Assembly (NCBI GenBank): GCA_037442745.1
Contig: JBBIPP010000001.1
Coordinates: forward strand, 1-13,788
Origin: an archaeon
GTDB taxonomy: Archaea; SpSt-1190; DYHY01
Length of the DNA stretch: 13,788 nucleotides
Reading direction: 5' to 3'
Shown here one piece after another: positions 1,165-13,788 of this stretch. The notes under the pieces are model-generated. The model was given only the letters and a program-made list of their open reading frames with translations. It was not told where the DNA came from and did not search any database. The position numbers and the translations under genes were made by a program. Every line of letters begins with the position of its first letter. Position 1 is the first letter of the stretch.

Positions 1165-3300
1165 ATGTCCTCAAGCTCCAGTTATGGCTCTTCTCAGTCT
1201 GGATATTCCCAGACTGGGAATGTTAACCCAACCCTCTCTGGAGCCGGAAACCTCCCGACATACAAGAGCTTCTTCACTCCGGAGGAAACTGCGCTATTCA
1301 CAAGCCATTATTTCAAGGCATACAGAAGCGAGGAGAAAATAGAGGCATCAACTCTCTATGAGAAATTGTGCACATCAGTTCCCAAGTGGGCGGAAATCCC
1401 AATGCCGCTCAGCAAGGACTCTTTTGCCGGAACTCTTCGGGAAGCTCTCCTCGTCTGCACTCCGAACCAGGTTTTCACAATGGCGTTCTATTCGTTCATG
1501 TTCGCAATGTTCCTCTCAGTCTTCGGCCTGACATATCTTCCCTATTCCGGGATATTGCTCGCAGTCGCTTTCGCTACCCCGTTTCTAATTGCTGGGGTCT
1601 ATTTCCTTTATCCAATAATCAAGATACGGATGGACAGGATGGCTGTTGTCGGGGAAGCTCCCTTGGCAATTCTCTATCTAGTAATATCCCTCCGCGTTTC
1701 CCCGTCCCTTGAGAGGGCAGTCTCCTATGCCAGCAAGAACGTTCCGGAGCCGATTGGGCGGGAATTCAAGTTCCTGATGTGGGACGTTTCAATGAAAACG
1801 AAAAATTCTATGAAGGACGCTGTCGGGGCATATAGCGCAAAGGTAAAATCCTGGGCTCCGGGATATTCGGACGCGCTCTATCTTGTCGCGAACTCGGTTG
1901 AGGAGCCCTCGAACAAGAGCAGGCTCGCAGTCCTTGAAAAGGCAATGGAGAACGCTCTTGAGAGCACTAAATCAATTATGGACAATTTCGCGCGGGGCCT
2001 CGGGATGCCTGTCGCGGTCACTAACGCCTTGGCAATCCTCCTACCGATTCTAGGCCTTGTAATGGCCCCGATGGCCTCAATGTTCATGAAGCAGGCGGGG
2101 GCGCTTCCAACGCTTCTCGTCCTTGTCTATGACTTTTTCCTTCCGGCAGTCCTCTTTGGAGTAGTTCTCCTGATAATATCTAGAAGGCCGTCCACATTTT
2201 CAGAAATTGACATTTCGGGCGATCCGGAAATTCCAAAGGAGGGCTATTACAGGATAAAGGGAGCGGGCGACATCCCGATTGGCCTCGTCTGTTTCGCGAT
2301 TTTCATTGTCCTTGCGTTCGTCTCGATCTCAATAGTAATCAGCACTGCAGGGGGCGTCTTCCTTCCATCTCCTCCGAAAGGAATGGGGAATGCCACTGGA
2401 TACACTGCCCTAAACACGCTTCCAATTGTCCTCGCGCTCGGGATATCAATAGGCCTCTACTATTACCTGAAGAACGTCCAGAAAATAAAGAGCAGGAAGA
2501 GGATTATAGAAATGGAGCGGGAATTCGCTTCAAGCCTCTTTCAATTGGGAAACATTCTTGAGCAGGGCAAACCATTGGAGGAGGCCTTTGAATATTCCGC
2601 CAAGGGCCTGAAAGGGACGAACTCGGCCGAGTTCTTCGTTGCAACAATAAGGAACGTCCGGCAAATGGGATTCCCGATTAAGCGGGCGATTTTCGACCCG
2701 AAATACGGCTCAATGAGCAAGGTGTCCTCTACCCTTATGAAGAACATTCTGGGAGTAATTATCGAGTCAGCGGACAGCGGGCCGATTGTAGCGTCCCAGA
2801 CAACCCTATCAATTTCAAACTATATCAGGAACATCCAAAACGTCCAGGAGAAAATTACAGACAGCCTATCTGACAACGTCACATCAATGCGCTTCCAGGC
2901 GCTTATTCTCGTCCCCCTTATTAGCGCGGTAATTGTCGGCCTGACGCAAATGGTGACTAACATCCTCCTTGCAATGAGTAAGCAGGTTGGTGAGCTTTTC
3001 AGTGGCGCTGAAAACACTGGAATTGCAATGTCCTTGTTCTCAACTTCCCTCTTCAATGTTGGAAACATTATGCAGGGCTCCTTCCTCCAGATTGTCGTAG
3101 GCATCTACACACTAATTCTCCTAGCAACTCTTGGCTTTTTCGTTGCAGGTCTCTCCAACGGAATACAGGACAGAATCGAGGTTGAAATGAACATTGGAAA
3201 AACCCTTTTCCTAGGGACAATTATATACTCAATAATAGTCGTTGTTATTGTGACAACATTCACTGGTCTTACTGAAGGTCTTATGGGAGGGGGGTTCTAG
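1165..3300 (+). CDS. tadC: Type IV pilus/archaellum membrane platform protein, T2SS-F family (TadC/TadB/FlaJ-like) with two T2SSF domains, 711 aa
   Basis: Two repeats of the T2SSF pattern: 'EAPLAILYLVISLRVSPSLERAV...EPIGREF' and 'EREFASSLFQLGNILEQGKPLEEAF'. Each is followed by TM hairpins, with about 9 hydrophobic helices in total. Lies directly upstream of a prepilin array. The symbol is a family-level assignment. Confidence 0.88.
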   Translation: MSSSSSYGSSQSGYSQTGNVNPTLSGAGNLPTYKSFFTPEETALFTSHYFKAYRSEEKIEASTLYEKLCTSVPKWAEIPMPLSKDSFAGTLREALLVCTPNQVFTMAFYSFMFAMFLSVFGLTYLPYSGILLAVAFATPFLIAGVYFLYPIIKIRMDRMAVVGEAPLAILYLVISLRVSPSLERAVSYASKNVPEPIGREFKFLMWDVSMKTKNSMKDAVGAYSAKVKSWAPGYSDALYLVANSVEEPSNKSRLAVLEKAMENALESTKSIMDNFARGLGMPVAVTNALAILLPILGLVMAPMASMFMKQAGALPTLLVLVYDFFLPAVLFGVVLLIISRRPSTFSEIDISGDPEIPKEGYYRIKGAGDIPIGLVCFAIFIVLAFVSISIVISTAGGVFLPSPPKGMGNATGYTALNTLPIVLALGISIGLYYYLKNVQKIKSRKRIIEMEREFASSLFQLGNILEQGKPLEEAFEYSAKGLKGTNSAEFFVATIRNVRQMGFPIKRAIFDPKYGSMSKVSSTLMKNILGVIIESADSGPIVASQTTLSISNYIRNIQNVQEKITDSLSDNVTSMRFQALILVPLISAVIVGLTQMVTNILLAMSKQVGELFSGAENTGIAMSLFSTSLFNVGNIMQGSFLQIVVGIYTLILLATLGFFVAGLSNGIQDRIEVEMNIGKTLFLGTIIYSIIVVVIVTTFTGLTEGLMGGGF

Positions 3301-3303
3301 GGA

Positions 3304-3591
3304 ATGGGAAGAGAGGCCGAGAATATGGCGAGGTCCGGAGCGGGCGGGCGGATGGTTGACCAGTGTTATCAGGAATCCGGAAAATGGGAAATCCGGAGAC
3401 AGAGCCGGAAGGGAGACGTTTCAGTCAGCCCTTCAAAAGAGTCTGTCAAGAATGTCGGGCTCTTCATCCTTTTTATTGCAATAATAATACTCCTAATAGT
3501 CCTTCTTTGGAGGCATTTTTTCGAGGGCGGAAACATTGTGACAAGCCTCTTCTCCCAGCTTATGCGCCTGACTGAGCCGAGGTATTCCTGA
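3304..3591 (+). CDS. Small prepilin-like membrane protein with long leader (class III signal peptide RKG|D)
   Basis: RQSRKG|DVSV followed by hydrophobic helix GLFILFIAIIILLIVLLW. Starts 3 nt after the tadC stop and ends 1 nt before the next ATG. Alternative starts at 3325 and 3352. The hydrophobic core begins about 15 aa after the motif, later than usual. Confidence 0.72.
   Translation: MGREAENMARSGAGGRMVDQCYQESGKWEIRRQSRKGDVSVSPSKESVKNVGLFILFIAIIILLIVLLWRHFFEGGNIVTSLFSQLMRLTEPRYS
3346..3417 (+). repeat. Diverged 72-bp direct repeat, copy 1 (pilin leader segment)
   Basis: Ungapped hand alignment to 4311-4382 gives about 53/72 identical nt. Confidence 0.8.
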
Positions 3592-3592
3592 A

Positions 3593-3970
3593 ATGGCGAA
3601 ACGTTTAGGAGAAGCAACTGCCTGGCCAATGAGCGCGGTTTTTATTGCTGGAGCGGCTGCCCTGATAATCGTCGCCCTCATTCTCTTCGCTTTCCTTGGA
3701 GGGAGCTTTGGAAAGCGCCTCTCAGAAAGGTTCGTTGACATTTTCTTCTCAATCTCCCTCCCAATTTCCCCTATTTTCCTGAAAAGAAAGAGAGTAAAAA
3801 GAAAGGGGCAGGTTGACGACGAGGCAGTCCTCACTGTGACAATAATAATCGGCGCGCTCTTTGCCCTGATTGCGCTCCTCTACTTGGGTTTTGTTAATGA
3901 CGGCTTTGCGAAGGCAGGGTCAATAATAAAGCAGAGGTTCGAGAGAACGGGGGGTTTTTTCGGGACATGA
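3593..3970 (+). CDS. Prepilin-like protein with two tandem class III signal/pilin modules, 125 aa
   Basis: N-terminal MAKRLG|EATAWPM plus hydrophobic helix. Internal KRKRVKRKG|QVDDEAVLTVTIIIGALFALIALLYLGF, with Q73 at nt 3809. Confidence 0.8.
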   Translation: MAKRLGEATAWPMSAVFIAGAAALIIVALILFAFLGGSFGKRLSERFVDIFFSISLPISPIFLKRKRVKRKGQVDDEAVLTVTIIIGALFALIALLYLGFVNDGFAKAGSIIKQRFERTGGFFGT

Positions 3971-4152
3971 CAAAAAGGCGGGCCCAGAACGGGTCAATGA
4001 TTTTCTGGATAGTTGTTGTCAGCGCCTGCGCGCTTTTTGCGGGAATTGTCCTCTATTACATGCTAAAACCGGACCTCTCCCTCCTTGCGAATCCGGATCC
4101 AATGAAGAAAACCGCGACAGATATTGTTGACAAGCTCCTTGGGATGGGCTGA
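3967..4152 (+). CDS. Micro-pilin, class III signal peptide (KRRA|Q), 61 aa
   Basis: MTKRRA|QNGSMIFWIVVVSACALFAGIVLYYML. ATGA overlap with the upstream stop. Confidence 0.8.
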   Translation: MTKRRAQNGSMIFWIVVVSACALFAGIVLYYMLKPDLSLLANPDPMKKTATDIVDKLLGMG

Positions 4153-4170
4153 CTTGGGTGAGATGAAAAA

Positions 4171-4302
4171 ATGAATGAGCGGAAATCCCAAACTGAAATG
4201 CCAATGATGATTGTCTGGCTGATTCTGGGATTAATTGGCCTCGCAATCGTGATTGTTCTCGCAATGCAGGGAAAGGATCTCTTCAAGGCGGTGCTTTGGT
4301 AG
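4171..4302 (+). CDS. Micro-pilin, class III signal peptide (RKS|Q), 43 aa; not in the ORF track
   Basis: Hand translation MNERKS|QTEMPMMIVWLILGLIGLAIVIVLAMQGKDLFKAVLW*. GGGTGA RBS at 4156-4161. Fills the gap between neighbours, with its stop 2 nt before ATG 4305. Confidence 0.8.
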   Translation: MNERKSQTEMPMMIVWLILGLIGLAIVIVLAMQGKDLFKAVLW

Positions 4303-4304
4303 GG

Positions 4305-4949
4305 ATGCGTGAGCGGAGGGTTGAATTGTGTCATCAGGAATCTGGACACGAGGAAATCTGGAGGCAAGGCAGAATGGGAGCCGACTATAGCGCGGTTTTT
4401 TACCTCCTGATCGCAATAGTAATAGTCGTCCTTTTGACGCTCGTTGTTCGGGTTGCTTGGGAAAAATACGTGGAAACGGAGGAGAGACAGAACCCGCCAG
4501 AGACCCCTATAGGGACAACAATTGGGAAACTCTGCCAATATGCTGACACGAGAACCGGGAGCGCAAAATCATTCTATACAGCTACAGGGGAAGTAGGTTA
4601 TCGTAACAGGGACATTTTCACCCGGGAGATGTTTTCGGCAAGGCTTGTCGAATGCTTCCAGCCTGACACTTGCATTGAGGCGGACGCGTCAGGAAACTGC
4701 CTTGAATCCTGGAGCGGAACAGTTTCCCTAGAATTCGCTGAAACCTGCCAGTTTGGGTCGGAGAATTTCGGTGGGCTCTCAGGGAAAATAATCTGCTCTC
4801 AAGGAGAGGATTGCTCCGGAAACCTGATGGGAAACTATGAGGTTGAAGTCAAGACAATTCTCGGGGACTATTCGGTAACCGCCCTTCCGGATTTCTGCAT
4901 ATGGTTTAGGCCTGTTGATTCAACAAGCGGGCTTGTGGGGGCGACTTGA
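4305..4949 (+). CDS. Cys-rich pilin-like protein with long leader (GRMG|A), 214 aa
   Basis: Start re-assigned from 4296 to ATG 4305. RQGRMG|ADYSAVFYLLIAIVIVVLLTLVV, then a domain with 8 Cys. Confidence 0.8.
   Translation: MRERRVELCHQESGHEEIWRQGRMGADYSAVFYLLIAIVIVVLLTLVVRVAWEKYVETEERQNPPETPIGTTIGKLCQYADTRTGSAKSFYTATGEVGYRNRDIFTREMFSARLVECFQPDTCIEADASGNCLESWSGTVSLEFAETCQFGSENFGGLSGKIICSQGEDCSGNLMGNYEVEVKTILGDYSVTALPDFCIWFRPVDSTSGLVGAT
4311..4382 (+). repeat. Diverged 72-bp direct repeat, copy 2 (pilin leader segment)
   Basis: About 74% identical to 3346-3417, ungapped, in the same reading frame relative to each gene. Confidence 0.8.
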
Positions 4950-5602
4950 TGGGGGACAACGAATTCGGGGCGAACACCCTTCTCGGATTCTTGAGCGTCC
5001 TAGTTGTCGCGGTCCTTGTTGTCTGGGCGGTTTTCGGCCCAATCAGGGAAAAATTCGGGGAATCAATGGATAATTTGGAAAACTGCCGGTGCTCTGTTCC
5101 GGATCCAGTCCAGATAACCCTGAGCAAGGGGCGCGTTCTTGCGACTGCGGATTCTGAGAACAGGGCTAAGGACCCATTCATTGAGGACGGCTTTGACGGG
5201 ATTGAAATAGACATCTGCAACTGCGAAGGAACGCCGTTGAATCTCGAGAACATGCGGATTGTTTTCAATGTTACCTATGACTGCTCACTTGAGAAATACG
5301 GGGACGGAACGCTCGTCAGGGAGTACAGAATCCCCAAGGACTTGAGAAAAGTCTCCCTTCCGAGAAACAAGGGAGTTTATTTCAAGTACAGAGACCTGAC
5401 TGCAAGTGTCGGAACTTTTGAATACACTCTCTATTCCAAGGAAGCAAAAGAGTTGAGGCTCGAAATGTTTCTCCCGAGAACTGATTCCTCCGGAAGGTGG
5501 CGAGCAGAAGCATACGTTGATGGTCGGCTCTCCGGAATGAGGGAAGGATGGGTTGAGTTCGAGAACAAAATGACTAGCGAAATGTGCGTTCTTGGTGGAT
5601 GA
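4949..5602 (+). CDS. Pilin-like N-terminally anchored protein with atypical acidic leader, 217 aa
   Basis: TGATG stop/start overlap at 4947-4951. MGDNEFG|ANTLLGFLSVLVVAVLVVWAVFG. 6 Cys including two CxC, and a beta-strand-like C-terminal domain. Confidence 0.78.
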   Translation: MGDNEFGANTLLGFLSVLVVAVLVVWAVFGPIREKFGESMDNLENCRCSVPDPVQITLSKGRVLATADSENRAKDPFIEDGFDGIEIDICNCEGTPLNLENMRIVFNVTYDCSLEKYGDGTLVREYRIPKDLRKVSLPRNKGVYFKYRDLTASVGTFEYTLYSKEAKELRLEMFLPRTDSSGRWRAEAYVDGRLSGMREGWVEFENKMTSEMCVLGG

Positions 5603-5805
5603 TTCGAATGGCTGAAAGACAATATAAAAAAGGAAGAAAAGCGGAAGGGGAAGGAAGGGGTTTCGCAATGAACTTTACAATCGGGATTGTCGGGGGGCTG
5701 ATAGTTTTCCTCGTAATTGTCTTCCTAATTGCATATGCAAGAGGCTCTCTTGAAGGAAACCTATTTTCCCTCCGGCAACCCGGGAAATTCGTTCTTCCCT
5801 TCTGA
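5599..5805 (+). CDS. Micro-pilin, class III signal peptide (RKA|E or GRG|F), 68 aa
   Basis: ATGA overlap at 5599-5602 (alternative ATG 5608). KKGRKA|EGEGRG|FAMNFTIGIVGGLIVFLVIVFLIAYA. Confidence 0.75.
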   Translation: MIRMAERQYKKGRKAEGEGRGFAMNFTIGIVGGLIVFLVIVFLIAYARGSLEGNLFSLRQPGKFVLPF

Positions 5806-5823
5806 AAGGGAAAAACAGAATTC

Positions 5824-5850
5824 CGATAAGTATTATAACCGGAAAGGAGG
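5824..5850 (+). promoter_or_regulatory. Putative internal BRE/TATA promoter and AGGAGG motif
   Basis: CGATAAG-TATTATAA (TATA 5831-5838), about 25 nt before ATG 5864, in a 58-nt gap. AGGAGG at 5845-5850. Confidence 0.5.
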
Positions 5851-5863
5851 AAAAAAAGCCGAA

Positions 5864-6373
5864 ATGGGCAGAAAAGCCGTTGAAATGGGCATCAATTTTG
5901 CTGTAATTATCCTAATTGTCCTTGCAGTCGCAATGTGGGCGCTAGGCGGGATAAACATGGCCGGAACACTTTTCAAGCCAGTAGGAGAAGGAGGAAAGGA
6001 ATATACTTACCAAGTGAGCGGGAATTTTCCGCAGATTTGCGATGATTGGATTTCCTCCAGCGAGAAATATATTCCCTCATACATTCTCGGGGGCCCCTTC
6101 AGGCCGTCAGTCACAAAGTCTGCGGAAACCCAAGGGGCAAAGTTCGCTTGTTGCACAAAGAGCCTGAACCTCGCTGCAGAGAACCTGAAGAGCAAGGGCA
6201 AATATTTCACGAGCGATGAAGAGGCTTCCTGGAATCTTGTCAACCGATGCCTTGATGCCTGCCATGCTGTCGTGAATGCGCGGACAGCCTGCAACAATAA
6301 CAACAACATTTCTGAAAAGTTCGACAAATGCATGACAAGACAGCTTGAGAACTTCGATTCTTGCAAAGAGTAG
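5864..6373 (+). CDS. Cys-rich pilin (RKA|V), CxxW / C-x3-C-x9-C family, 169 aa
   Basis: Start re-assigned from 5729 to ATG 5864: MGRKA|VEMGINFAVIILIVLAVAMWAL. Contains CDDW and CLDACHAVVNARTAC; 8 Cys. Confidence 0.85.
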   Translation: MGRKAVEMGINFAVIILIVLAVAMWALGGINMAGTLFKPVGEGGKEYTYQVSGNFPQICDDWISSSEKYIPSYILGGPFRPSVTKSAETQGAKFACCTKSLNLAAENLKSKGKYFTSDEEASWNLVNRCLDACHAVVNARTACNNNNNISEKFDKCMTRQLENFDSCKE

Positions 6374-6399
6374 AGAAGGCACTGGAAAGGGTTTCCAAT

Positions 6400-7812
6400 A
6401 TGGAGAATGGAAGAGCCGGACGGAAGGGGGATCTTGCAACAGTAATAACCCTCGTAATGGCAGCAATAATTGCAATTGCAGTCCTTTTCTTTCTTTTGGG
6501 CGGAATTTTCCCTTTGATAAGAGTTATCGGGGTCGATGTCCCGACAGAAGCATTGGTTGACATGAAAAAGAGCTATGTAGTCTCTTCCTGCTCAGGCTGG
6601 CTCGATTCTGGCGCCCTTGAGATTTCCTATAACCCGAAAATAAACGATGCCCAGAAATCAGCCGATCTTGGATGGGACGAGTTCTGCTCGCCTGATGCTA
6701 TACGGGACAATCCAATGATGCGTTGCACCTGCGCGAAAGCCTGCACAAAGGCAGTCTCGGCTGACAAGAAGTGCCAGCTGAATCCGAACATTTTCAAGCC
6801 AGATCTCTTCACCCATTCTACTGACGACCCGGAAAAGGGGACAATTTCAACATCTTTCGAGTCAAGGGAGGGTGTCTCAAGAAAGTTCGCGGCATCCTAT
6901 TGCGCCCTGGATTTCCTGAAAAGTCTCTCCGAAATTGACAGGACGTGCCGGCCGGAGAGCGAAACAGCTGGGCTTATTGTTGTCCAGATTCAATTGGAAT
7001 ATTCCAAGCCAATTGCTGACTATGGGACGCTGACACCAATTGGATCGCTGAGAACAATTACCGGGGATCCCTTCCCCAACATAAACGAGGTGAAGGTGAC
7101 TTGCCGGGTGACTTGCAGGGTTCCGGGAGGATGCGATGGAACAACAGTCTCCGTCAACTACGGATGCAAGAGCTATCGTCCTTATTGGGCTTCACTAAAT
7201 TCTGCAGACCATTGCTGTGAACGGAGCATTACTAGTTATCCGGGATCAGTTATTCCGAATGCGGAAAGGACAATTCCGGTGTCAACCGGGCGCTGTCTGG
7301 GCAGTGCCGGGGAATGCGGAAGCATTGAGAACTTCAGGGTCGAAAGCTCGGAAGAAACAAACGCATATTCAAGCATAACATTCATTTCCGGGGACGGCGC
7401 CAAGGCGCTTGAAAGGTTCCAGATTGTTGAACCTGCCCAGACCTGCGACCATATTGCTGAAGGGGAGAGTTGCTCTAAAGAATTCACAATAAGGGCGCTC
7501 GACGAAGTGTTCGATGTTGACATTGGTGGCTCCCTTCGGGGAGCGCATTCCCTTGAGAACAATGCTCTCTATTGCAAGGCAGTCTATCAGGGGGACGACA
7601 TATTCTCGACAAGAGAGCCACCGGTTTTGACTGTTCTGGCGGCACAGTCCGCTTATTATGCGTACGACACTGCTCCGGGCAACGTTTACAAGAATTTCCT
7701 ATGCATTAACGAGGACGAAAACTGCAACGCAATTTCCCAGTCTCAGGCAGGAGCCCGACCGGGAACTCCTTATGACATGTCTGCAGGCAACTTGAAGGGG
7801 GCGTGCGGATAA
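6400..7812 (+). CDS. Large Cys-rich pilin/adhesin-like protein (RKG|D), CxxW / C-x3-C-x9-C family, 470 aa
   Basis: Start re-assigned from 6361 to ATG 6400: MENGRAGRKG|DLATVITLVMAAIIAIAVLFFLL. Contains CSGW and CAKACTKAVSADKKC; 22 Cys; extra C-terminal domains. Confidence 0.85.
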   Translation: MENGRAGRKGDLATVITLVMAAIIAIAVLFFLLGGIFPLIRVIGVDVPTEALVDMKKSYVVSSCSGWLDSGALEISYNPKINDAQKSADLGWDEFCSPDAIRDNPMMRCTCAKACTKAVSADKKCQLNPNIFKPDLFTHSTDDPEKGTISTSFESREGVSRKFAASYCALDFLKSLSEIDRTCRPESETAGLIVVQIQLEYSKPIADYGTLTPIGSLRTITGDPFPNINEVKVTCRVTCRVPGGCDGTTVSVNYGCKSYRPYWASLNSADHCCERSITSYPGSVIPNAERTIPVSTGRCLGSAGECGSIENFRVESSEETNAYSSITFISGDGAKALERFQIVEPAQTCDHIAEGESCSKEFTIRALDEVFDVDIGGSLRGAHSLENNALYCKAVYQGDDIFSTREPPVLTVLAAQSAYYAYDTAPGNVYKNFLCINEDENCNAISQSQAGARPGTPYDMSAGNLKGACG

Positions 7813-8270
7813 TGGCTATTGAAAGGAAGGGCGCACTTCAACTGACAATAACTGCGGTAATTGCAGCGGTAATCGCAATAGTTGTCCTTTGGATTGTGAT
7901 TGGCCGGGTAGCTCCCCAGATAAACCTGATGTTAAACAACGGAACGGAAATCCAAGGGAACAAATATCTTGAAATACAGGCTCTTCATAAAGCCTGCTCT
8001 ACTTGGAGGGGCTTTGAATATTTGGACACAATTGACCTTGGAATTGACGACTCATTCACCAAAATCGGCCTCTCAAAGAGAATTGGGGACAACCTTGTCT
8101 GCGAGGACCAGAAAAGGGACTATATTTCCTGCGTGAAGAAGTGCGCTGCCTTGGAAACCCAGCTCTCAGCCTGCGCCGAGAGGAAGGAAGGGTGCTATTC
8201 TGTGGGGGGCAAATATTTCCAGAGGTGCGATATTGAAGGGTGCACGGGAACGGGAGGCTCCTCTCAATGA
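7812..8270 (+). CDS. Cys-rich pilin (RKG|A), CxxW / C-x3-C-x9-C family, 152 aa
   Basis: TAATG overlap. MAIERKG|ALQLTITAVIAAVIAIVVLWIVI. Contains CSTW and CVKKCAALETQLSAC; 8 Cys. Confidence 0.85.
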   Translation: MAIERKGALQLTITAVIAAVIAIVVLWIVIGRVAPQINLMLNNGTEIQGNKYLEIQALHKACSTWRGFEYLDTIDLGIDDSFTKIGLSKRIGDNLVCEDQKRDYISCVKKCAALETQLSACAERKEGCYSVGGKYFQRCDIEGCTGTGGSSQ

Positions 8271-8920
8271 GCGGAGCAATAAGAAAGGCTGAAGGGGGGG
8301 TCAGTCTCCCAATAATGCTAGTACTTGCAACAATAGTTGCGATTGTAATACTTGCAATTGGAATAGGAGCCCTTTCAAAAGTGAAAAAAGAAGGCAATGA
8401 CTTGGGCTCTGAATACAGGGTTGCCGAGGCTGTCGCATATTCCCAGATAAAGTCGAAATGCATGTTCTGGAGGGGGCAACTCGGGGGAATGGGCGGGGGC
8501 GCATATCTTGAGGGCCAGTGCCAGACCTCTCCAGATTCCTGCAGGTCGTCTTTCATGGACACTGCATTCAAGACATATGGGATAATGTTCTATTCGGGGG
8601 CGGCGCGCCTTGAAAAAAGCGTCTATTTTGACAGAGTCAGGAGCACCCGCACGCTTGCCTGCATAAGGGCTTCTGAGACTCTCTCTGCCGGAGTCTCAAA
8701 GGAAGACGACGCTCAAGCTCTCCTCCAGATTGCGAATTCCCTTGAAGCGAAATACCAGACTCCGACCGGAAAGCAGGAAATCCTTGACATTGCAATGAGT
8801 TGCGCCAAAATCTGCGAATGGGTTGCAACAAGGGAGGCTGCCTGCGAGAGAGGCCCTGCCAATTGCGCCCAGATTGCAATTGACTTGGATGAGGGAATTC
8901 TTGATGATTATTTGCCCTAG
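8267..8920 (+). CDS. Cys-rich pilin (RKA|E), CxxW / C-x3-C-x9-C family, 217 aa
   Basis: ATGA overlap. MSGAIRKA|EGGVSLPIMLVLATIVAIVILAIGI. Contains CMFW and CAKICEWVATREAAC; 8 Cys. Confidence 0.85.
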   Translation: MSGAIRKAEGGVSLPIMLVLATIVAIVILAIGIGALSKVKKEGNDLGSEYRVAEAVAYSQIKSKCMFWRGQLGGMGGGAYLEGQCQTSPDSCRSSFMDTAFKTYGIMFYSGAARLEKSVYFDRVRSTRTLACIRASETLSAGVSKEDDAQALLQIANSLEAKYQTPTGKQEILDIAMSCAKICEWVATREAACERGPANCAQIAIDLDEGILDDYLP

Positions 8921-8952
8921 ATTGCCGGGTAGTTCTTGCTAGAAAAGGGGTC

Positions 8953-8969
8953 TGAAAAGGATTAAATAC
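8953..8969 (+). promoter_or_regulatory. Putative internal BRE/TATA promoter (leaderless transcript)
   Basis: GAAAAGG-ATTAAATA (TATA 8961-8968), 25 nt before ATG 8994, in a 73-nt gap. No RBS is apparent. Confidence 0.6.
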
Positions 8970-8993
8970 TTGTTTTGCCTTTTTTAGGGCAGT

Positions 8994-9548
8994 ATGGCTA
9001 AATCCGGAAGAAAAGGGGCAGAACAGCCAATCTGGCTATTGGTTGCGCTTCTCCTAGCAGTTGTTGTAGGAATTGCAATGTTTAACATGATTAGCAAGGG
9101 GACGGGAATTTTCCAGCTCTTCATGGGCCAGGGCCAAAGCGGGGATACTGAGCGCATTGCAATGGAATCCTTCTGCAGGTCGTGGATTAGGCCGACTGAA
9201 ACCGATCTCAACGGGAACATTAACCCTAGGGCAAGCGAGCCTCCCGTGAGGGAGCGGGAACGCATGACTGATGTTTTCAGGAAAGCTGGCTGGCTCTCCG
9301 CTGAAAAGGACCCGACAACAAGAGCGTATATTGAGCAGGGGCCCCCATCTGGATGCGATTGCCTTGTATTCCTTGCAACTCCTGCCGGAGGGAACCTCCT
9401 AGGGCCGACCAAATCCAAGCAGTTCCTTTCTGACGAGGTGTCGAGCGGGTCAATCTACTCGCCCTATTCCTGCAACACAAAGGCTGCCTGCGTTGCCCAG
9501 AAATCAGTTCCTGAACTGGCAGAACTCTTCACATTCAGGAGCTGTTAA
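8994..9548 (+). CDS. Cys-rich pilin (RKG|A) with CxxW, 184 aa
   Basis: MAKSGRKG|AEQPIWLLVALLLAVVVGIAMF. Contains CRSW; 6 Cys. Confidence 0.87.
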   Translation: MAKSGRKGAEQPIWLLVALLLAVVVGIAMFNMISKGTGIFQLFMGQGQSGDTERIAMESFCRSWIRPTETDLNGNINPRASEPPVRERERMTDVFRKAGWLSAEKDPTTRAYIEQGPPSGCDCLVFLATPAGGNLLGPTKSKQFLSDEVSSGSIYSPYSCNTKAACVAQKSVPELAELFTFRSC

Positions 9549-10205
9549 TTGAAGGCAGGGGGAAAATAATGCCTCTCCCTCCCAAATCCCCTGCGGGGGG
9601 GGCTTTGCCAAAGCGGAAGAATGGGGGAAGGAACTCGATTATTCTCACATCCCTAACGACTATTTTCGGGGTAATTGGCCTAGTAGTCCTCGTTTTCGTA
9701 ATTTCCGTAATCCTCACATATACAATCAGGGGAGGGGTTGCAATTTCCCTTGCCCGCTCTGTATCCGCCCTCGCAACCGGGCTTGATCAAGTGTGCAAGA
9801 ACGACAGGAACCTCATCCAGTTGGAGCTGACAATACCAAAGGAAAAGTCGATCTATATTCTCAATTGCGAGCAGGTGGGAAACCTCGCGACAATCCCCCA
9901 ATATTCCGCCCGGTGGTCGGACAAGATCAGGCAAATGGATGTCGCCAGATACCGGGGCTGGAGCGACATATTGCTCGACTGCTCGAAAGTTGTCGCTGGG
10001 AACGAGAAGAAAAGGATTCATGTTGCCATTTTCGAAATAGAATATGTGCATCCGAGCGGAGGAAACACAATAATTATTCCAAAAGTGTCCTCAACCAAGG
10101 TGAACTGCGCGCTCCATGACGTTGAGCTAATGGAAGGGGAAGGGGAGTTTGTCGGTGGGACTAAAAGAAAGGTTGAAATAGGGATAACCCCTGTCGGTAC
10201 TGTTT

Positions 10206-12068
<1,863 letters not shown>

Positions 12069-13645: not shown

Positions 13646-13661
13646 TTCCTTCCCCGCAGGG

Positions 13662-13788
13662 GTTGTCTCCTGCTCAAAGACTGATTCCGAATTTTACAGG
13701 GAAATTTCCGTTGACGCGTGCGTTATTTCAGCAGTAAACCTTCTCGGAAACCCCTCCCTCTACCCAATAGCGTCTGTTGAAAGGAAGG
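13662..13788 (+). repeat. Exact 127-bp direct repeat, copy 2, running to the window end
   Basis: Identical to 11517-11643; the true length is unknown because the sequence ends. Confidence 0.95.

Follow-up and report, generated by a model that had tools for sequence, protein, structure and literature searches.

Background

Very short all-helical pilins exist, for example Flp of Tad pili and PilA of Geobacter, and gene fusion can, as a general principle, join small membrane-protein partners in a hairpin whose loop is positively charged. Micrarchaeota live as ultra-small symbionts, whose contact with the host may involve surface filaments.

Archaeal minor pilin genes, as presented in the main text of Makarova, Koonin and Albers (2016, PMC4858521), stand in operons with a secretion ATPase and a TadC-like platform and code for small, fast-evolving proteins with one N-terminal hydrophobic helix each. 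According to this text, many archaeal pilus loci contain at least five such proteins; it mentions fused FlaC/D/E but no fused pilins, some of which the supplements may list. Archaeal class III signals, in the account given by PMC10117864, are short N-terminal sequences of 3-12 residues ending in glycine, with charged residues at -2 and -3 and a hydrophobic stretch thereafter. An archaellin whose -1 glycine was changed is described there as poorly cleaved, and Q at +1 is noted in PMC2910488 for some (DUF361-type) pilins. Our full-text literature searches for a pilin polyprotein or an internally processed prepilin found none.

We analysed a window (the whole stretch of DNA under study, 13,788 nt) containing an unusual ORF at 3593-3970. 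In a preliminary description, this ORF was proposed to code for a pilin polyprotein with two class III signal peptides, whose middle hydrophobic segment returns the chain to the cytoplasm so that two pilins are released in 1:1 ratio.

Gene content of the locus

The ORF lies downstream of a platform gene on the same strand, between small genes that we number 1 and 4 of an array. The locus contains the following features:

1165..3300, + strand: 711-aa polytopic protein, a divergent TadC/FlaJ-like (T2SSF) platform according to hhalign against the genome's own T2SSF proteins
3304..3591, + strand: small gene 1 of the array, 95 aa as listed, with SRKG/D followed by a helix (slashes mark candidate cleavage sites)
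3593..3970, + strand: fused small membrane-protein ORF, 125 aa plus stop, in the place of array genes 2 and 3
3967..4152, + strand: small gene 4 of the array, 61 aa, with a DP motif in its tail that is common to relatives
4171..4302, + strand: small gene 5 of the array, 43 aa, with ERKS/QTEMP (GRKG/QATEMP in a Ca. Micrarchaeum relative)
4296..12068, + strand: nine larger consecutive ORFs, most with an RKG-type N-terminus and a hydrophobic helix (pilin-like), several of them Cys-rich

A 766-aa T2SSE ATPase is encoded upstream, on another contig (C6) of the genome, and a divergently oriented gene for a 454-aa protein lies between it and the platform gene. Pfam search of the 711-aa platform gave no match and PDB profile search with the platform alignment gave 0 matches. 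When the 10-sequence platform alignment was compared by hhalign with the genome's six T2SSF-domain proteins, the probability was 91.5% (E 8.8e-7, 208 columns). The platform protein was detected in all 17 genomes of the class. The same is true for peptidase genes; in the genome studied here, the A24 prepilin (class III signal) peptidase gene (C15:25672-26025 region) scores 43.7 bits at a cut-off of 26.5. Since a T2SSE ATPase, a T2SSF-related platform, small and pilin-like genes and an A24 peptidase gene in the genome are found together, the locus is, by its gene content, type IV pilus-like.

Several other features were observed. The contig of the ATPase gene also carries genes for eRF1, Rpb3 and RIO kinase, which mark the genome as archaeal. 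One relative, whose platform protein is 66% identical, is labelled Candidatus Micrarchaeum sp. Platform homologues of four relatives (G001:C34, G006:C2, G008:C26 and G015:C66) each read through one in-frame stop (TGA once, TAG twice, TAA once). Direct repeats of 71 nt, 75% identical, occur at 3348-3418 and 4313-4383; in frame, they code for similar long leaders (C-x-QESG-x-x-EI-x-RQ-x-R-x-G) that precede the helices of small gene 1 and of a 217-aa ORF. The Cys-rich larger pilin-like ORFs within 6361-12068 include those of 483 and 620 aa; cysteine richness of pilus-locus proteins is also remarked for some other archaea in the main text of PMC4858521. Runs of AAC repeats encode poly-asparagine at the C-terminus of the 620-aa ORF (12017-12054) and, in a shorter version, in a 214-aa ORF (6289-6308). 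Far from the window, on the minus strand of G000:C11:60973-62443, two paralogous ORFs (157 and 167 aa, ~500 nt apart) both have textbook class III N-termini, RKG/QGALEYL.

Architecture of the 125-codon ORF

All elements claimed in the preliminary description are present in the sequence, i.e. KRLG/E, a helix, a second hydrophobic stretch, KRKRVKRKG/Q and another helix. Hydrophobicity is given below as the 19-residue Kyte-Doolittle mean (KD19), together with helix limits of an AF2 model:

3593..3628, + strand: N-terminal tail, residues 1-12, with KRLG/E (residues 3-7), a weak class III-like motif
3629..3700, + strand: helix 1, residues 13-36, of module 1 (the gene 2 equivalent); KD19 2.96, AF2 helix 13-35
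3731..3781, + strand: middle proline-containing hydrophobic stretch, FVDIFFSISLPISPIFL, residues 47-63; KD19 1.26, compared below with the gene-2 tail
3782..3808, + strand: K/R linker KRKRVKRKG, residues 64-72, 96% purine at the DNA level, ending at the candidate internal cleavage site G72/Q73
3809..3967, + strand: module 2, residues 73-125 (the gene 3 equivalent), with acidic QVDDE, helix 78-101 and an amphipathic tail ending in GGFFGT

Helix 1 and the middle stretch are separated by a basic stretch, GKRLSER. The first ATG (3593) is one base beyond the stop codon of the ORF before it, with GAGGT 9 nt ahead of the ATG; an existing gene call of the same sequence (P0002, 113 aa) begins at Met13 instead of codon 1. 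In-frame ATG, GTG or TTG is restricted to codons 1, 13, 82 and 98, so the reported absence of these codons ahead of the second module is right. An internal translation start for module 2 can be ruled out, as no canonical in-frame start is present between codons 13 and 82.

Fused and separate genes in relatives

We wondered how the two halves of the ORF are arranged elsewhere. Protein searches returned few homologs. Word-indexed search with the 125-aa protein retained two proteins of 522 candidates, namely its own gene call and P0001 (125 aa, 89% identical, with the same architecture). Full HMMER search of 1.84 billion representatives matched the 125-aa protein only with itself, and the top score in the ESM Atlas search (0.78) was under the meaningful level. 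A search of 61 related genomes yielded one credible match beyond the own genome, in G001 of the same genus (E 4.7e-5); the remaining 12 matching genomes gave E values of 0.0066 or worse, apparently due to helices only. In Pfam-A and NCBIfam, the 125-aa ORF has only sub-threshold matches to unrelated membrane families and none to a curated pilin family, and no family of either collection covers the scanned window members (95-, 125- and 61-aa ORFs).

The DNA downstream of the platform gene was thus read directly in 16 platform-anchored loci (L021-L036). The two genes stand apart, each with its own stop and start, in 11 of them: nine family f3 genomes plus G002 and G004. These loci contain five small genes of about 65, 49, 66, 63 and 37 codons, with one hydrophobic helix each. 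Two loci have a single two-helix ORF in place of genes 2 and 3, G001 (121 codons) and G003 (148 codons), the latter being a Ca. Micrarchaeum contig from another genus of the same family. Two loci (family f4) are arranged differently and one ends at the contig end. Outside this set, the fused state is found in the window itself and in P0001. Scanning of metagenomes with the platform alignment gave nine loci (L044-L052), two of which (L044 and L052) were left out of the comparison since the match runs to the locus end. Among the other seven and two genome-contig loci (L042, L043), no new fused lineage was detected: L047 and L048 have split genes 2 and 3, the contig of L042 is the Ca. Micrarchaeum one already counted, and L043, L049 and L050 are devoid of the array. 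The two modules claimed for the ORF are thus separate genes in most loci and one gene in a few, and orthologs prove to be fused or split according to lineage.

Genes 1, 4 and 5 are recognisable in fused and split loci, gene 4 by the DP motif and a D-x-I-V/G tail. The number of helices agrees as well, as the window has five helices in four genes and split loci have five in five. Since 11 relatives possess a five-gene array and one ORF replaces genes 2 and 3 here, the ORF is very probably a lineage-specific in-frame fusion of these two genes. Profile comparison of the halves by hhalign is weak (residues 1-44 against gene 2, P 7e-4; residues 82-110 against gene 3, P 0.12), the sequences being tiny and divergent, so the identification of halves with genes 2 and 3 is based on gene order and position. 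As the two genes are fused in some lineages and split in others, their products are probable partners. Platform identity to the window is 76% in G001, 67% in G003, 52% in G002 and 44% in G004. From this order we infer that the fusion probably arose once, in an ancestor shared by both fused genera.

Predicted topology of the fused protein

Hydropathy of the middle segment is far below that of the flanking helices in all three fused lineages. Its KD19 equals 1.26 in the window, 1.76 in G001 and 0.98 in G003, compared with 2.96 and 2.82 for helices of the window protein and 2.5-3.5 for flanking helices across the three lineages. A crude sum over a biological hydrophobicity scale gave +10.6, +4.9 and +9.5 for the middle segments against -2 to -7 for the flanking helices. 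By position, the middle stretch matches the short tail, e.g. RYFLKLPAYAVLYYGG, at the C-terminus of the free gene 2 product. Judged from these values and this position, we take it to be an amphipathic gene-2 tail rather than a membrane span. Hydropathy therefore gives two membrane-grade helices where three had been expected, and the proposed return of the chain to the cytoplasm through the middle segment finds no support.

K and R residues are distributed unevenly in the window protein, with 2 in the N-terminal tail, 10 in the loop and 4 in the C-terminal tail. According to the positive-inside rule of von Heijne, basic loops lie on the cytoplasmic side. The loop is thus predicted to be cytoplasmic, with both ends outside.

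We therefore favour a hairpin of two helices that is left uncut and has its basic loop in the cytoplasm; to this reading we assign a probability of roughly one half. A short N-terminal tail would lie outside, followed by helix 1, a cytoplasmic loop of ~40 residues composed of the former gene-2 amphipathic tail and the new K/R cluster, helix 2 and an amphipathic C-terminal tail again outside. The basic cluster is just what a cytoplasmic hairpin loop needs. Left uncut, the protein would represent a covalent pair of two small subunits of the pilus machinery. It is from sequence features that we infer this topology, the absence of cleavage and the joint action of both partners.

Several observations do not fit easily with the hairpin. 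Charge sums of the flanks over 11 sequences are -5 (N) and +21 (C) for free gene 2 and -19 (N) and +14 (C) for free gene 3, which suggests that both free proteins share the N-out/C-in orientation. Since they seem to be oriented alike, module 2 would be inverted in a hairpin. With 9 K/R ahead of helix 1, the long form of the Ca. Micrarchaeum protein (G003) would rather have its N-terminus inside. The weak profile matches of the halves mentioned above also count against this reading. The AF2 model, built from a 4-row alignment, shows helices 13-35, 40-55 and 76-119 and a disordered linker; since its confidence is low (pLDDT 56, pTM 0.27), it adds little to the hairpin and was used for helix limits only.

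The candidate internal cleavage site

One objection to an uncut hairpin comes from the linker itself. KRKG/QVDDE has K/R at -2 and -3 and G at -1, and a helix follows (residues 78-96, KD19 2.82). It resembles the N-terminal class III-like sites of the genome's own candidate pilins, such as KRKG/QSSVEL and RKG/QGALEY, with Q at +1 and an acidic residue at +5 or +6 (E at +5 in the window ORF). Moreover, [KR][KR][GS] directly precedes the acidic start of module 2 in all four fused sequences (KRKG/Q twice, RRKS/V and RRKG/D), although the rest of the linker varies in both length and sequence.

These features raise the possibility that class III signal peptidase cuts G72/Q73 on the cytoplasmic face. 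The ORF would then code for a prepilin with a 72-residue leader containing a membrane helix; the protein would insert in hairpin form or use a marginal third span. Products would be a 53-residue, all-helical, pilin-like subunit and membrane-anchored residues 1-72, in fixed 1:1 ratio. Internal cutting is topologically possible in a hairpin since G72/Q73 would face the cytoplasm there, and the site would be cytoplasmic in either topology. Peptidase genes are present in all 17 genomes of the class. Module 2 is the more conserved part of the fused protein as judged by comparison with P0001, to which it is identical at 53 of 53 residues, against 58 of 72 in module 1. It also appears as one long helix (76-119) in the low-confidence AF2 model. 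The serine found at -1 in one fused sequence has a parallel in gene 5, where ERKS/Q of the window corresponds to GRKG/Q in a relative.

On the other hand, the site is located at residues 72/73 of the precursor, far beyond the 3-12 residues given for N-terminal archaeal signals in PMC10117864. The serine at -1 belongs to the same-genus ortholog, and changes of the -1 glycine impair cleavage in the archaellin case of the same paper. Free-standing gene 3 shows no basic leader in any of 11 relatives. The idea that families with leaderless array genes lack the peptidase was ruled out, as all 17 genomes carry one. The lack of any internally processed pilin in our literature searches also counts against internal cutting.

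The motif can be explained in another way. In 9 of the 11 split junctions, inspection by eye showed a GGAGG- or GGTGG-like sequence where gene 2 ends, within its final codons and immediately ahead of the start of gene 3. These codons specify a C-terminal Gly-Gly, and stop and start often overlap at the junction; Gly-Gly codons doubling as ribosome-binding site may be the reason why many array proteins end in GG. At the same position, the three fused lineages have AGA AAG GGG, AGG AAA TCG and AGG AAG GGC. Linker codons AGR AAR GGN/TCG are thus Shine-Dalgarno-like and occupy the position that the gene-3 ribosome-binding site has in split relatives, so that RK[GS] is what a relic of this site encodes in the given frame. 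Motifs of this type are also common before internal helices. We compiled an approximate gene set of the genome (1,301 ORFs, 385 with predicted helix) and looked for [KR][KR]G in the 12 residues ahead of each helix. It was present at 17 of 754 internal helices and at 17 of 276 first helices; besides the ORF studied here, 16 other internal helices are preceded by it. A ribosome-binding-site relic together with a positive-inside loop would account for the linker of an uncut hairpin, and we regard processing at G72/Q73 as less likely than an uncut protein.

The N-terminal motif and the three-span model

The original proposal goes further, as it assumes three spans, cutting of both signals and two pilins in 1:1 ratio. 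Both motifs do exist in the window, and a proline-containing hydrophobic middle segment is found in all three fused lineages. The second motif has the residues of the class III pattern, but it is internal and of a type not rare before helices in this genome. The first departs from the pattern: the -2 residue is L in KRLG/E and S in P0001 (RRSG/E), in disagreement with the charged -2 and -3 residues listed in PMC10117864. The claim of "two class III signal peptides" is thus not confirmed. The N-terminal tail is fast-evolving, with 8 of 12 residues identical to P0001, and the same-genus ortholog G001 starts with MPEDTPAS, which contains neither a basic residue nor glycine. The first signal is therefore, as far as these sequences go, non-canonical and not conserved.

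One argument for the three-span model is the Ca. Micrarchaeum ortholog. Read from its first ATG, it has RRKG before both helices, and its 9 N-terminal K/R lie before helix 1. In this basic N-terminal extension (L022:3748-3830), however, AGGAAGGG stands 7 nt before an ATG inside the frame, and a start at this ATG would give MDDW..., similar to MEDW... of a free gene 2. The internal ATG may thus be the true start, in which case the upstream RRKG would be untranslated.

The low hydropathy of the middle segment in all three lineages also speaks against three spans. Furthermore, the product of module 1 would in this model retain both of its spans together with a strongly basic tail in the cytoplasm and would hardly be extractable into a filament. 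Ending in KRKRVKRKG, it could not act as a pilin, and the claim of two pilins in 1:1 ratio is not supported. Taken together, the three-span model is very improbable.

Integrity of the reading frame

Logan contigs of two runs (X1 and X2, possibly the source runs) show 0 differences over 3300-4300, including the stretch 3700-3810 that had been singled out for verification. A contig from a different study (X3) is ~91% identical over 3404-4295. It has two indels in the ORF, at 3792 and 3795, that compensate each other. Its changes at 3600-3620 correspond to K3R, L5S, A8V and A10T and match the differences of P0001 exactly, and third codon positions account for 19 of the 32 X3 substitutions in the ORF among those listed (up to 3795). 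The ORF is also intact in two further genomes at 26-28% identity (G001 and the Ca. Micrarchaeum contig G003). The 125-codon ORF is real and not an assembly error, and no stop or frameshift separates its modules, as had been stated.

The contig of the window (C1 of the 1.14-Mb, 20-contig genome G000) is a duplicate of C6:73921-87788 (7,640 nt at 100% identity, 6,131 nt at 99.8%), where it spans an N gap. Its terminal 134 nt (13655-13788) are 98.5% identical to 11510-11643, a repeat that resembles an assembly join. An artefact or decaying gene, i.e. sequencing or assembly error or recent functionless loss of a stop codon, might be suspected from this redundancy and from the terminal repeat, by which the assembly is not flawless, but identical contigs of two runs, an intact 91% variant with compensating indels and third-position excess, and preservation at 26-28% identity leave it hardly any probability.

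Comparison with known systems

The locus of this micrarchaeon carries a conserved array of five genes for tiny membrane proteins outside curated families, two of which are joined in some lineages. If the internal site is cut, the known action of prepilin peptidases would be widened, and signals should be searched for inside proteins and not at N-termini alone. If the hairpin stays uncut, a ribosome-binding-site relic combined with a positive-inside loop can mimic a signal peptide.

The array is similar to archaeal minor pilin genes, as these are characterised in the main text of PMC4858521, in its association with a secretion ATPase and a TadC-like platform and in comprising several small, fast-evolving one-helix proteins. 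Unlike those minor pilins, array members have no Pfam or NCBIfam pilin match, are only about 37-70 residues long with no globular domain, and are leaderless in many relatives.

With canonical PibD/FlaK/EppA signals, as far as described in PMC10117864 and PMC2910488, the linker site has in common its basic -2 and -3 positions, the glycine at -1, the Q at +1 and the hydrophobic helix thereafter; the genome also possesses a cognate A24 peptidase gene. The site differs from them in its location at residue 72, behind a membrane helix, and in the five polar or acidic residues that separate it from the hydrophobic run of module 2.

Module 2, if released, would be comparable to Flp and Geobacter PilA as a single long helix of ~53 residues whose first half is hydrophobic. 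It has no Flp-type G/XXXXEY motif, and the likeness noted here is one of shape.

The favoured uncut hairpin has a parallel in fusions of small membrane-protein partners, with which the ORF has in common two single-span neighbours, a new K/R-rich connector and a fused or split state depending on lineage. In contrast to such hairpin fusions, the free partners seem to be co-oriented here.
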